A stretch of DNA of 64,000 bases from Alphaproteobacteria bacterium (GTDB lineage Bacteria > Pseudomonadota > Alphaproteobacteria > GCA-2731375), in assembly GCA_965216645.1 (NCBI GenBank), contig CBDCGJ010000068.1:2626-66625 (forward strand), in the 5' to 3' direction. Of the stretch, positions 44,290-51,383 are shown piece by piece. Numbering within the stretch: the first letter of the stretch is position 1; every line of letters starts with the position of its first letter. Position numbers and translations under genes: made by a program. The notes beneath the pieces are model-generated. The model did no database searches, was not told the origin of the DNA, and saw only the letters and a program-made list of their open reading frames with translations.

Positions 44290-45270
44290 ATGAAGGCACT
44301 TTACTGTCAGGCCTATTGCGAGCCGGACGATCTCGTCTACGGCGACCTACCGCCGCCCGAGATCGGCGCGAATGACGTCCGCATCGCCGTTCGGGCAGCG
44401 GCTTTGAACTTCCCGGACTTGTTGATGATCCAGGGCAAATACCAATACAAATCCCCCTTCCCTTTCGCGCCCGGCATGGAATGCGCCGGCGAAATTGTGG
44501 AAGTCGGCCCAGAGGTAACGGACCTGTCGCCCGGCGACCGGGTCGCGGCCCATCCCTGGCGCGGCTGCCTGGCCGAGCAAGTGGCGGCGCCAGCGGACCT
44601 GGTACATAAACTGCCGGAAGAGATGGACGACGTCACAGCGGCCGGTTTCTGCCTTACGCATGGTACGGTCTATCATGCCTTGCACGATCGGGGTGCCCTG
44701 AAGCCGGGTGAGACGCTTCTTGTCCTTGGTGCCGCCGGCGGCGTCGGCATCAACGCCTGTACCTTCGGTAAGCAATTGGGTGCCCGCGTCATTGCGGCGG
44801 CAAGCGGACCGGAGAAACTCGAACTTGCCCGCGCCCACGGCGCCGATGAGGTGATCGACTATACCCGCGAAGATCTGCGCGATCGGGTCAAAGCCCTGAC
44901 CGAGAATCGCGGCGTGGACGTGATCTTCGATCCGGTCGGCGGCGATGCCACGGACCAGGCGATGCGTTGCCTCGCTTTCGACGGCCGGCTGTTGATCATC
45001 GGATTTGCCGGCGGCCGGATCGCCGACCTGCGCAGCAACTACGTGCTGATCAAATGCCTACAGATCGTCGGCGTCGCCTTTCAACGCTTCACCCGCCTCG
45101 CCCCGCAGCAGTCGAAAGCGAATATGCAGGCGATGTTCGAGTTATGGCAGGACGACAAGCTGAAGCCGTTGATCGGTGCAACCTACCCTTTGGCCGAGGG
45201 CGCGCGGGCACTCAACGACATGGCGGCAAGACGGGCCACGGGGAAGTTGGTGGTCACGGTCGATCAGTAA
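44290..45270 (+). CDS. NADPH:quinone oxidoreductase (zeta-crystallin MDR family)
   Basis: NFPD, PGME, GAAGGVG, DPVGG, TGKLV. Confidence 0.9.
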   Translation: MKALYCQAYCEPDDLVYGDLPPPEIGANDVRIAVRAAALNFPDLLMIQGKYQYKSPFPFAPGMECAGEIVEVGPEVTDLSPGDRVAAHPWRGCLAEQVAAPADLVHKLPEEMDDVTAAGFCLTHGTVYHALHDRGALKPGETLLVLGAAGGVGINACTFGKQLGARVIAAASGPEKLELARAHGADEVIDYTREDLRDRVKALTENRGVDVIFDPVGGDATDQAMRCLAFDGRLLIIGFAGGRIADLRSNYVLIKCLQIVGVAFQRFTRLAPQQSKANMQAMFELWQDDKLKPLIGATYPLAEGARALNDMAARRATGKLVVTVDQ

Positions 45271-45608
45271 AGGCGCGCGCCCGGACTGACCTCTTTATCC
45301 GGCGCGATCAAAACGACCTCGCCCTCGTCGTCGGGAAAACCGAGTACCAGCACCTCCGACATGAATTTGCCGATTTGCTTGCGCGGGAAGTTGACGACGG
45401 CGGCCACCTGCCGACCAAGCAGTTCGTCCTTGTCGTAGTTTTTCGTGACTTGCGCGGAGGACTTGCGTTCGCCGATCTCAGGTCCGAAATCGAGCCAGAT
45501 TTTGTAAGCCGGCCGGCGTGCTTCTGGAAAATCTTCGACCTTGACGATGCGGCCGACGCGAATGTCGACAGCCAGAAAATCTTCGAAATCAATCTCCGGC
45601 GCGCTCAT
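45264..45608 (-). CDS. csaA: tRNA-binding/chaperone protein CsaA
   Basis: DIRVG, FPEARRPAY, SSAQVT, VVNFPRKQIG, SEVLVLG. Confidence 0.92.
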   Translation of the reverse strand: MSAPEIDFEDFLAVDIRVGRIVKVEDFPEARRPAYKIWLDFGPEIGERKSSAQVTKNYDKDELLGRQVAAVVNFPRKQIGKFMSEVLVLGFPDDEGEVVLIAPDKEVSPGARLY

Positions 45609-48246: not shown

Positions 48247-48750
48247 TTATGCCTCGCCCACGGTCTCCAGCATGGAAGCGGCGACCGCTTCCTGAGCGGT
48301 TTTACCACCCCAGATGACGAACTGGAAAGCCGGGTAGAAGCGTTCGCATTCGGACATGGCGATTTCGATCAAGGTCTCGACTTCGCCGCCCGAGAGCTGA
48401 CGCAGTTCGCCGGTCAACAGCGCGTGACGGAACATGGGTATGTCCTCCTCGCTCCAAAGATCGAAATGGCCGAGCCACATGCGCTCGTTGATCTGCGCCA
48501 AGAGGTCGTAAATTGCCGTCCGCTTTTTGGCCGGGATGCGGAGGTCGTAGGCGCAGGCGATCTGAATGCCGCCCTGCTGCGGACAATAGGAGAAGCCGAG
48601 GTGATAGTCGCACCAACTGCCGGCCACGCAAACCGACAGCTCCCCCTCGCCCTGCCGATCGAAGGCCCATTCATGGGCGGTGACAATTTCCTCCACGATA
48701 TCCAGGGGATTCAAATCGTATTCGGCGTAATCGTTCGACAGCATACTCAT
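48247..48750 (-). CDS. YbjN-domain protein
   Basis: NPLDIVE, INERMWLGHFDLW, CERFYPAFQFV, ETVGEA; usual neighbour of proC. Confidence 0.85.
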   Translation of the reverse strand: MSMLSNDYAEYDLNPLDIVEEIVTAHEWAFDRQGEGELSVCVAGSWCDYHLGFSYCPQQGGIQIACAYDLRIPAKKRTAIYDLLAQINERMWLGHFDLWSEEDIPMFRHALLTGELRQLSGGEVETLIEIAMSECERFYPAFQFVIWGGKTAQEAVAASMLETVGEA

Positions 48751-49037: not shown

Positions 49038-50633
49038 CTATCCGCATAATTTCGGAAACAAATGTTCCCCGACAGTGATTTCGTGACCGGCAAAAGCATC
49101 TACACCACGCTCTTTCATTGTGCCCAGCCGTCGATTTATCAATCCGCTCGCGTTCGGTAGAAAAGGTTCGAGGAAATGGGCTATGTGGGCTAACGCAATC
49201 ACTATGTTAAATAGGCAAACAGCAAGTTTTCTTTCCGGCGCCTCAGCAAAACCCCGTAACCGCGCATGCTCAATTTCCTTGGCCAGTTCCCAAGGTTTCT
49301 GATCCGCAACATATTTGTTTGCCGCCCCTACGAATCTCCAGATATCGGAAAGGGCATCGTTGAACGCGTATCGATCGACGTATGTCTCGACCCGTTGTTC
49401 AAGCAAATCCGCTACGCCAATAAATTCTGCGACTTCGCTTTGATCCAGCTCGATATTCGGGACCGATCCTCCGCTGTAACGCGCAACCATGCTTGTCACC
49501 CGATGCACAAGGTTCCCAAGCTGCCCTGCAAGCTCCGAGTGATAACATTGCGCTAACCGCTCGCGGGAGAAATCCCCGTCTTTGGTGCTATGAATATGTC
49601 GTAGCAGATAATATCGCACGGCATCCGGCCCGAATTCGCCGGCCAATGGGGTTGGCGCGACCACTTGTCCGCCTGACTTGCTTATCTTTTTACCGTCGAT
49701 GGTGACGTAACCATGGACAAAGATATCTGTCGGCAAAGGCAACCCGGCAGATAGCAACATAGCGGGCCAGTACAACGCGTGAAAGCGACTGATCCCCTTG
49801 CCAATGACATGCTGACGTCGGTCGGCGTTTGTCCAGTACTGCTCAAAATCCTCAGCTTTGCCGCCGTAACCAAGTGCGGAGACATAATTCACCAAAGCAT
49901 CGAACCAGACATAGATGGTTTGCGAGGGATCGCCTGGTACCGTAATACCCCAATCATGGGCACGGGTGCTCGACCGGCTGATCGAGAAATCGTCAAGACC
50001 GCTTGTTATCCAACCCAAAACCTCGTTGCGGCGACTTGATGGGTGTACCCGAATTTGATCCGAACGAAGCAGTTTTTCCAAACGGTCCTGGAAATCCGAC
50101 AGGCGGAAAAAATAGTTCTCCTCCGAAACCGGTTCGGGCGCGACAAAATGCTCGGGACAGCGCCCATCAATCAGATCTTCGTCGCGTAGAAACTGCTCGC
50201 AGCCGACGCAGTAAAGGCCTTCATACTGTCGCTTATATATATGCCCGCTGTCGTAGCAAGCAGTCCAAATGGCTTCGACGGCAACTCGATGTCGCGGGTC
50301 GACGCTTGTCCGTATGAAATCGTCCGTCGACAAATTTAACGATCGTTTCAGTTCGCTAAAGGCTTCGCTGGTTTGCGCGACAAATGTCGTTGTTTCCATG
50401 TTGTGGCGAACCGCAGCTTGCACATTCTTTAGACTGTTTTCGTCGGCACCGCTTTGAAATCGTACGCGATATCCCTGCCTCCGGCGATATCGCGCCAGAA
50501 CGTCCGCCTGAATCATTTCCATAGCAAATCCGATATGAGGTTCGGCATTCACATAAGGAATCGAGGAAGTTATGTACCAAGTATCCTTCTGGGTTGTATT
50601 CTCTAGGCACGGATTTGCTGGTTTATCTTGCAT
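49038..50633 (-). CDS. metG: Methionyl-tRNA synthetase (short, single-knuckle form)
   Basis: PYVNAEPHIGF (HIGH variant), DFIRT, YCVGC...CPEH knuckle, EENYFF, YVWFDAL, KISKS, LGNL; GGAG 6 nt before ATG 50633. Confidence 0.93.
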   Translation of the reverse strand: MQDKPANPCLENTTQKDTWYITSSIPYVNAEPHIGFAMEMIQADVLARYRRRQGYRVRFQSGADENSLKNVQAAVRHNMETTTFVAQTSEAFSELKRSLNLSTDDFIRTSVDPRHRVAVEAIWTACYDSGHIYKRQYEGLYCVGCEQFLRDEDLIDGRCPEHFVAPEPVSEENYFFRLSDFQDRLEKLLRSDQIRVHPSSRRNEVLGWITSGLDDFSISRSSTRAHDWGITVPGDPSQTIYVWFDALVNYVSALGYGGKAEDFEQYWTNADRRQHVIGKGISRFHALYWPAMLLSAGLPLPTDIFVHGYVTIDGKKISKSGGQVVAPTPLAGEFGPDAVRYYLLRHIHSTKDGDFSRERLAQCYHSELAGQLGNLVHRVTSMVARYSGGSVPNIELDQSEVAEFIGVADLLEQRVETYVDRYAFNDALSDIWRFVGAANKYVADQKPWELAKEIEHARLRGFAEAPERKLAVCLFNIVIALAHIAHFLEPFLPNASGLINRRLGTMKERGVDAFAGHEITVGEHLFPKLCG

Positions 50634-50669
50634 GTTGTTCTCCACTCCATGATCAGAATGAGGTGGAGC

Positions 50670-50699
50670 AAAAAAAACCGCCTCATTCCGAGACGGTTT
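50670..50699 (-). terminator. Intrinsic terminator (attenuator 3:4 hairpin) in the metG leader
   Basis: Minus strand AAACCGTCTC-GGAAT-GAGGCGG-TTTTTTTT, ending 36 nt upstream of the metG start. Confidence 0.88.
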
Positions 50700-50724
50700 C
50701 CGCTGTTGTTCTATGTCCTTACCG

Positions 50725-50808
50725 CTAATTTGCGCAAAAGCTACCCGCCCCGATATAAAAACGAGGCATCATCATGTCCGCAAATGGAAAAGTGCGATAG
50801 ATGGTCAT
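50725..50808 (-). CDS. Putative Met-rich attenuator leader peptide MTIYRTFPFADMMMPRFYIGAGSFCAN (27 aa)
   Basis: Manual translation; ATG ATG ATG at codons 12-14 (50775-50767); lies between a promoter and the terminator preceding metG. Confidence 0.8.
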   Translation of the reverse strand: MTIYRTFPFADMMMPRFYIGAGSFCAN

Positions 50809-50814
50809 GGCGAA

Positions 50815-50843
50815 TTTCTAAAAACGAGGCCGCGGACTGTCAA
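50815..50843 (-). promoter_or_regulatory. Sigma70-type promoter for the leader-metG transcript
   Basis: TTGACA (50843-50838), 17-nt spacer, TAGAAA (50820-50815), then 6 nt to the leader ATG. Confidence 0.65.
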
Positions 50844-50948
50844 CATGCAATGTAAAAATGTTGTGCTTGTTGTATCGAGTTCAGTAATTGGCCTATGTCA
50901 CTAGAAAAGTGTGTCTAGTACGTATCAAACAACAAGTCAGAACTTCCC

Positions 50949-51383
50949 CTAGCGAGATTTCGTGGCTGTCGGCTTCTTCTTCGTTGCTGCTTTACCGGCC
51001 GTTTTCCGTGTCGTGCTCTTCGTATTACCGGTGGGCTTGGCGCGCGTCGATTTGGTTGCCGATGTTTTTTTTCGGGCTGTTGCCGTGCGGCTGGTCTTTG
51101 CCGTAGACGATTTCGCCTTCGTCGCCTTAGCCCTTGCCGGCTTGGCTTTGGCTTCCAGTGCGGCGAGGCGTTTGGCGAGGGTTTCGTTTTCCTGCCGCGC
51201 GGTTTCGGCCATGGCTTTGACGGCGTCGAACTCCTCCCGCGTGACCAGGTCCATGCGGTCGATCAGGGCTTCGGCCCGTTGTTTGATCAGGTTTTCCACT
51301 TCGCCGGCCGCGCCCTGCAGGACGCCGGCGGTGCTGTTGGCCAGCTTGGAAACGTCGTCGAAAAACTTACGCCGGGCGTTCAT
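50949..51383 (-). CDS. ubiK: UbiK/BMFP-family accessory protein with Lys/Thr/Ala-rich C-terminal tail
   Basis: FFDDVSKL, DLVTREEFDAVKAMA...LAKRLAALE; AGGAG RBS; divergent from lgt. Confidence 0.85.
   Translation of the reverse strand: MNARRKFFDDVSKLANSTAGVLQGAAGEVENLIKQRAEALIDRMDLVTREEFDAVKAMAETARQENETLAKRLAALEAKAKPARAKATKAKSSTAKTSRTATARKKTSATKSTRAKPTGNTKSTTRKTAGKAATKKKPTATKSR

Follow-up and report, generated by a model that had tools for sequence, protein, structure and literature searches.

A predicted methionine-codon leader-peptide attenuator upstream of an auxiliary methionyl-tRNA synthetase gene

Introduction

On the minus strand of an alphaproteobacterial contig, within a stretch of 64,000 nucleotides that was analysed as a whole and is here called the window, a methionyl-tRNA synthetase (MetRS) gene is preceded by a short upstream open reading frame (uORF) with three tandem Met codons, by helices that exclude one another and by an intrinsic terminator. 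This element is most likely a Met-tRNA-sensing attenuator, i.e., a methionine version of classical ribosome-mediated attenuation. Promoter, leader ORF, attenuator and auxiliary MetRS would together form a self-contained, horizontally transferable cassette that monitors how much charged elongator Met-tRNA is available, a reading to which we assign a probability of roughly 85%. Its groundwork, namely the Met-rich uORF, the exclusive helices, their spacing and the link to one MetRS clade, is apparent from the sequence and from the comparison of loci. To our knowledge, methionine is not among the amino acids known to be sensed through leader-peptide attenuators. A Met sensor looks awkward, partly because the same enzyme charges the tRNA needed to start the sensor ORF, and a natural and conserved example makes it testable whether elongator Met-tRNA is exhausted before initiator tRNA and whether leaderless initiation is of help. 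The cassette further suggests that selection acts on MetRS in soil-dwelling and aquatic bacteria.

The window leader and its folding

When the minus strand was re-read, the uORF, its Met run, the four pairing segments and the U tract of the preliminary description were all found in place (Table 1). Two features had escaped that first reading. The leader ORF is probably leaderless, since hexamers resembling -35 and -10 elements end 6 nt before its AUG, and segments 5 and 6, located 3' of the U tract, can in the folding models either hide or free the metG Shine-Dalgarno sequence. At the window leader, a simple scanner found no sigma-70 consensus promoter, and a simple terminator scanner listed the 1:2 hairpin alone and did not call the 3:4 hairpin. 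A 12-nt direct repeat (50830-50819 and 50767-50756, minus strand) makes segment 1 and a T run recur in the putative promoter spacer. Two sequencing runs of one study, which may be the source sample, contain no differing letters at the locus, and a contig of one run, with the same proviso on its origin, covers the leader together with the end of the gene upstream.

Table 1. Leader elements, auxiliary MetRS gene and flanking genes in the window.
Feature	Position	Strand	Remarks
Upstream flank gene, BMFP family	50949..51383	-	PF04380; outside the switch
Putative -35, TTGACA	50838..50843	-	from sequence; TTGAC equally spaced from the uORF in L085, L005 and L010
Putative -10, TAGAAA (without final T)	50815..50820	-	17 nt past the -35, 6 nt before the uORF AUG
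Leader uORF	50725..50808	-	27 codons, reads MTIYRTFPFADMMMPRFYIGAGSFCAN; Met-cluster uORF also in 129/156 homologues
ATG x3, proposed sensor	50767..50775	-	tandem Met codons 12-14 of the uORF
Segment 1, anti-antiterminator arm	50762..50767	-	pair probability with segment 2 about 0.97
Segment 2, partner of 1 or 3	50745..50753	-	starts 14 nt past the last Met codon
Segment 3, terminator 5' arm and antiterminator partner	50688..50699	-	folding and helix search
Segment 4 and U8 of the intrinsic terminator	50670..50684	-	U8 at 50677-50670
Segment 5	50655..50668	-	pairs either with 50689-50681 (9 bp; terminator loop and segment 4) or with the Shine-Dalgarno region of metG
Segment 6	50640..50650	-	holds the Shine-Dalgarno GGAG (50643-50640) of the second metG
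Auxiliary methionyl-tRNA synthetase, 531 aa	49038..50633	-	HIGF / GADENS / GKGI / KISKS; CxxC + CxxH knuckle
Downstream flank gene, YbjN family	48247..48750	-	PF10722; marks the insertion site

The pairings claimed earlier are borne out by folding calculations. In naked RNA up to the U tract, segments 1 and 2 pair with a probability of about 0.97 and the core pairs of 3:4 approach 1.0, with the U8 tract as previously written, so that the naked leader folds as 1:2 plus 3:4; the alternative 2:3 helix, 9 bp long and including three G-U pairs, ranked first in the helix search. With segment 1 masked, 2:3 forms with p=1.0 if the RNA ends before segment 4. In RNA that includes segment 4 and the U tract, equilibrium favours 3:4 despite the mask, and the switch must therefore be kinetic and co-transcriptional. 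In a ribosome-mask simulation, the terminator arm of the window leader is captured at 0.67, 1.0 and 0.65 in the naked, Met-stalled and at-stop states, respectively; in silico, the antiterminator is thus exclusive of the terminator and is favoured with a ribosome at the control codons. Opening the ribosome-binding site (RBS) costs 11.3 kcal/mol with segment 4 locked versus 7.8 with segment 4 free, and at full length the ON and OFF folds differ little in energy (-37.0 vs -37.4). The window element goes beyond chance. Among 474 short-ORF matches with internal MM or MxM in the 5.46-Mb genome, only three have a U-tailed hairpin (<= -11 kcal/mol) behind them, two of which are this locus and the third an unrelated GTG ORF.

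Proposed mechanism

In the mechanism that we propose, a ribosome would start on the probably leaderless uORF. With Met-tRNA in plentiful supply it would pass segment 2 or leave 1:2 folded, the 3:4 terminator would form, and in any read-through RNA the 5:6 pairing would hide the metG RBS. When Met-tRNA is scarce, the ribosome would stall at the AUG run, covering segment 1 but not segment 2, which would let 2:3 form before segment 4 is made; transcription would then continue, and 4:5 could free the metG RBS. The spare MetRS produced in this way would restore charging at times when its housekeeping counterpart is starved or inhibited. The weak point of the model is that an untranslated leader folds into the OFF state, so that the initiator tRNA must outlast the elongator tRNA, i.e., elongator Met-tRNA would have to fall first.

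An auxiliary MetRS on a horizontally acquired insert

The target had been identified as metG, which is right as to the enzyme (full-length TIGR00398 match, 437.6 bits against a cut-off of 336.35; best PDB matches are type-1 MetRS) but not as to its role: the housekeeping metG of the same genome lies on contig C29, and the window gene is a second copy, 43% identical to it. The insert that carries this copy has 51% GC versus 59% for the window, and GC3 of the auxiliary gene is 0.53 versus 0.74-0.77 in its neighbours. It splits a BMFP-ybjN gene pair that is adjacent in 4 of the 5 relatives checked. The window MetRS is a horizontally acquired auxiliary copy on a low-GC insert. Among 40 relatives, a close second MetRS copy was found only in the same-genus genome (58%), where it occupies a different site and has an MMM leader of its own. 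In phylogenetic trees, which were midpoint-rooted for drawing only and from which the long type-2 enzymes were left out, the window enzyme clusters with auxiliary copies from rhizobia and other proteobacteria, and the auxiliary clade splits from the housekeeping type-1 enzymes with full support. In the surroundings of the insert, the BMFP-family protein (50949-51383) has a long Lys/Ala/Thr-rich C-terminal tail past the Pfam domain. A stand-alone CsaA/tRNA-binding protein, related to the MetRS C-terminal domain, is encoded 3.4 kb downstream (45264-45608, minus strand) and is probably part of the host gene run.

The window enzyme lacks the canonical HIGH, DEHG and GKDI motifs and has HIGF, DENS and GKGI instead. 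Among the best loci listed, the clade has HxGF in 126/161 (a count biased upward by the HIGF sequences among the search seeds), DEN or DDN in 160/161 and GKG in 115 of the 125 parsed, and the housekeeping copies have HxGH and DEHG in 19/19 and GKD in the 18 parsed. A CxxC knuckle is kept in all 161 clade members among these loci and is absent from the 19 alphaproteobacterial housekeeping copies, so that the two enzymes differ biochemically. A zinc-sparing paralogue was considered and rejected, because the CxxC knuckle is present in the auxiliary copy and missing from the native one of the host. The variant motifs also occur where the clade MetRS is the sole MetRS found, which argues that the enzyme is still active. 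In three metagenome-assembled genomes (MAGs; L027, L039 and L062), an altered-motif MetRS of 650-660 aa without Met leader is the only one found, and the clade thus also serves as housekeeping enzyme. Irregular coding sequences were noted at three loci. The auxiliary MetRS match of L015 (G051:C1:811674-813155) has one TGA stop near its end, the MetRS gene of L024 appears to begin at ATT (about 2989-2991) where its close homologue L033 has ATG, and the genome's LeuRS ORF at L003 (G000:C63:41010-44567) stops after 345 aa, suggesting a frameshift or an assembly error in an essential gene.

Conservation of the Met-codon leader

Homologous loci were compared as the best 80 from genomes and the best 80 from metagenomes together with the window and the same-genus locus (162), of which six with less than 250 nt upstream were dropped. 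If the leader is functional, as first proposed, Met-run ORFs should recur in front of homologous genes, and a short ORF with MM or MxM is in fact found in 129 of the remaining 156 best loci. The same pattern occurs in 4/144 windows shifted by 600 nt, in 9/156 reverse strands and in 0/19 housekeeping metG genes (alphaproteobacterial loci only), and among the best loci listed such a gap between family loci and controls exists for Met and for no other amino acid. The loci are partly related to one another, with 57 leaders left below 75% identity, and one or two of the positives (L140, L077) may be chance. Met accounts for 14% of the internal leader codons versus 2% in the long open frames of the genome, in leaders that were chosen for Met clusters. 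Hosts of Met-cluster leaders are actinobacteria, Chloroflexota and proteobacteria. Among the 27 negatives, six loci (L005, L006, L042, L050, L064 and L078) show single-Met variants of the leader by eye, two have T-boxes with an AUG specifier, and others lie directly behind an upstream gene. A Met T-box (RF00230) takes the place of the leader in L052 and L137, which are near-identical to each other and encode the same enzyme clade. At L183, a T-box-like antiterminator was seen by eye upstream of the MetRS, below the Rfam gathering score.

The distribution of the cassette among the best loci is patchy and includes plasmids; 7 of 11 plasmid matches were examined, and the leader is present in 7/7. 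Clustering of neighbouring genes across loci yielded no shared operon, the largest cluster comprising 11 loci (clusters not individually annotated). A leader pattern run against 201 Streptomycetaceae genomes gave 16 matches, at least two of them in genomes already in the homologue set, and all 16 precede a clade MetRS; the reversed pattern gave none. When 50 genomes were searched for another MetRS, one turned up in 29/33 with a Met-cluster leader, 5/6 with a single-Met variant and 3/11 without leader, one of these last three finds being partial. The leader-bearing genomes in which another MetRS was not found are all MAGs. One locus, L030 (G059), from a genome with unpublished data, contributes one row to the Chloroflexota-type leaders described below and one miss to the second-MetRS tally, and no conclusion rests on it.

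Three leader builds with Met codons in common

The leaders fall into three builds that have the Met codons in common and differ in the peptide. The actinobacterial build has MMPR at codons 7-10, and TANNNT stands 6-7 nt before the uORF start in 48/50 leaders versus 0/50 before the metG AUG. The proteobacterial build, which includes the window, has MMMxR or MxM; the arrangement TTGAC-17-TA-6-AUG is shared by the window, L085, L005 and L010, and the full TANNNT occurs in only 4 of 15 proteobacteria-like leaders. The Chloroflexota build is mostly a Shine-Dalgarno-led MxMxM, with an antiterminator arm that pairs with the terminator loop. The window leader aligns with an actinobacterial leader over segments 1 and 2. 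U-rich tails are present in most proteobacterial and Chloroflexota homologues, and many actinobacterial 3:4 hairpins have no clean U tract.

The mask simulation was extended to these groups with 30 shuffles per leader, groups and three stems being assigned partly by hand. Over 50 actinobacterial leaders, terminator-arm capture in the naked, Met-stalled and at-stop states is 0.36/0.99/0.45, compared with 0.74/0.71/0.64 for shuffles, and the switch exceeds 0.3 in 36/50 versus 1.8 expected (maximum 6). The 15 proteobacteria-like leaders give 0.69/0.96/0.39 with a switch in 5/15 versus 0.4 expected; none of the 21 Chloroflexota-type leaders switched in this simulation. Folding also indicates that freeing segment 4 lowers the cost of opening the RBS in 46/50 actinobacterial leaders, in a comparison run without shuffle control. 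Among proteobacteria-like leaders the RBS opens more easily in 6/15 and less easily in 7/15, and no RBS effect appeared in the 21 Chloroflexota-type leaders.

In 15 divergent leaders, segment 2 begins 7-19 nt past the last Met codon. Covarying stems were the other expectation raised at the outset. In the same 15 leaders, whose rows are not fully independent, a segment pairs better with its own partner than with that of a foreign leader (p=0.006 for 2:3, p=0.003 for 1:2 and p=0.05 for 4:5), but alignment counts of compensatory changes are weak for 1:2 and 3:4 and at shuffle level for 2:3. Helix 1:2 is 93% paired over 37 aligned leaders, and covariation is weak or absent in actinobacteria because the stems are almost invariant and the columns barely vary. 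Automated hairpin picking with duplex shuffles reached p<0.05 in 7/57, 12/57 and 6/57 leaders, a test of little power as the hairpin picked was often wrong, and stems picked by rule and by hand were used in its place. An equilibrium "gain" profile peaks at or just before the Met codons; it has no null and is not counted as evidence. Taken as a whole, the comparative evidence from homologue leaders, mask folding and partner test supports the earlier interpretation of the element as an attenuator worked by ribosome stalling at Met codons.

Relation to known regulatory systems

The element appears to be new to databases and literature, in agreement with the preliminary description, whose author knew of no precedent: no prior account was found, and Rfam holds no family that reaches threshold. 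In the window, Rfam models gave sub-threshold matches only (best Phe_leader, 17 bits against a cut-off of 55), and in 8 homologous loci they gave none; no SAM riboswitch or other Rfam cis-element reached the gathering score in either. The T-box model RF00230, which finds L052 and L137, has no match up to E=10 in window positions 50300-51300. No description of a Met-codon leader at metG was found in the literature searched, which lay mostly outside subscription journals. A term look-up in the accessible parts of PMC9437257 and PMC6100412 gave no matches, and the accessible part of PMC2965389 contains T-box/leader swaps at hisS and no metG. The supplements of PMC2965389, PMC11109978 and PMC8323819, or older computational surveys of attenuators, may list the leader.

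Like the classical attenuators (trp, his, thr, pheST), the window leader has a short ORF with a run of cognate codons, alternative 1:2, 2:3 and 3:4 pairings and a U-tailed terminator. Unlike them, it would sense Met and is probably leaderless, and the window and the actinobacterial leaders have an additional RBS layer formed by 4:5 and 5:6. A related system is trpRS1 of Streptomyces coelicolor, reportedly (Vecchione and Sello, 2010) an indolmycin-resistant auxiliary TrpRS under a Trp-codon leader. In both cases, an auxiliary synthetase would be induced via a leader rich in its own amino acid, although enzyme and codon differ and MetRS resistance is here only proposed. A Met T-box likewise senses uncharged tRNA-Met upstream of MetRS, but it binds the tRNA directly without a ribosome, whereas the window leader would use the ribosome.

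The general mechanism of ribosome-mediated attenuation is established (10.1101/834739). In Streptomyces, attenuators have been predicted at trpS2 and leuS (PMC1262725); the accessible part of that study states that no conserved RNA element was seen ahead of the methionine operons of actinobacteria and says nothing of metG. The mycobacterial polycysteine leaders, as described in the available text of 10.1101/834739, resemble the window leader in their leaderless short ORF, codon-run sensing and control of Shine-Dalgarno access. They differ in that they sense Cys and that the codon tract itself pairs with the Shine-Dalgarno sequence in a translational control, in contrast to the Met codons and the hairpin cascade with terminator of the window. 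A candidate uORF at Streptococcus fthC has also been speculated to respond to methionine (PMC11109978), but via initiation (tRNA-fMet) and at a one-carbon gene, with no internal Met run described in the accessible part of that paper.

Possible purposes of the cassette

Since the gene under control encodes a horizontally acquired auxiliary MetRS, a backup role is more likely than routine homeostasis. The cassette may provide inducible resistance against natural MetRS inhibitors, e.g., agrocin-84-like nucleotide antibiotics, an interpretation compatible with the attenuator and one to which we give just under even odds. Producers would then hold the enzyme in their biosynthetic cluster without a Met leader, and non-producers would hold it alone behind the leader, a split that fits, by analogy, the one reported for indolmycin-resistant TrpRS. 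An extra copy beside the housekeeping enzyme and horizontal spread, both hallmarks of resistant auxiliary synthetases of the MupA, AgnB2 and TrpRS1 type, are found here, and the patchy occurrence, plasmids included, without conserved neighbours also counts in favour of resistance. AgnB2 is an agrocin-84-resistant LeuRS, and the MetRS genes of actinobacterial agrocin-84-like clusters have been proposed to confer self-immunity (accessible part of the review PMC8323819), which speaks for resistance as well. Of 401 Streptomycetaceae genomes searched with AgnC1, 3 gave a match, and each of these has several agn homologues with a MetRS close by. Two of the three cluster MetRS carry DENS together with GKGV or GRGV and lie, like the window enzyme, inside the leader clade (support 100/100), which suggests an inducible defence against a MetRS inhibitor. 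However, the third cluster has a canonical MetRS, and the two clade enzymes have retained HxGH and form branches separate from the leader-bearing groups. No Met leader was seen upstream of these two, and the window gene for its part has no such cluster beside it. In total, four agrocin-84-like clusters (L231-L234) were noted in these three genomes (G137, G363 and G129), two of them in G129; a MetRS lies near three of the four, and G363 holds three MetRS genes.

The departure of the clade from the canonical motifs (to HxGF, DEN/DDN and GKG) can likewise be read as a sign of resistance, and the altered HIGH motif of IleRS2, which leads to mupirocin hyper-resistance (PMC10485003, accessible part), provides a precedent. 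Nevertheless, altered motifs also occur where the MetRS is the only copy found and may thus be lineage traits, and the HIGF search seeds bias the motif count. No characterised natural MetRS inhibitor was found in the accessible parts of the literature searched. The boldest form of the proposal, in which this is the first Met-sensing leader-peptide attenuator, with at least three architectures across phyla, and its MetRS clade a mobile inducible resistance to still-undiscovered agrocin-like MetRS antibiotics, is put forward tentatively, with the odds somewhat against it. If the resistance interpretation is true, the leader represents a ready-made biosensor for MetRS-targeting antibiotics, and since the clade occurs in uncharacterised agrocin-like clusters, a leader-reporter fusion could be used to screen for natural MetRS inhibitors.

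Alternatively, the leader may respond simply to a lack of methionine or sulphur, or to a damaged main enzyme, and bring in a kinetically better MetRS with no antibiotic involved, which we regard as a real possibility with the odds clearly against it. The switch cannot distinguish between causes of low Met-tRNA, members of the same clade are also found behind a Met T-box, and the CxxC difference from the alphaproteobacterial housekeeping copies fits enzymes of unlike biochemistry. On the other hand, no shared operon for Met uptake or synthesis emerged from the neighbour clusters (not individually annotated), and in Streptomycetaceae the leader pattern stands only before MetRS (16/16).

The uORF peptide could also sense general or drug-induced stalling, e.g., through R-x-R after MMP in actinobacteria, the Met codons being incidental. 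MMPRxRG is indeed strongly conserved in actinobacteria, with PR after the last Met in 47/50 leaders, but its codons are the 1:2 hairpin itself, many leaders end directly after PR, and in the window segment 2 is read in a different frame. Moreover, 15 proteobacteria-like leaders show ten variants of the residue pair behind the Met cluster, and the target gene is a MetRS, all of which makes this explanation improbable. Finally, the insertion could have left behind a constitutive terminator or a chance ORF, e.g., one that blocks read-through from the BMFP gene. This would suit a cassette located inside a same-strand gene run but is very improbable, as the same architecture is found at unrelated insertion sites in several phyla.
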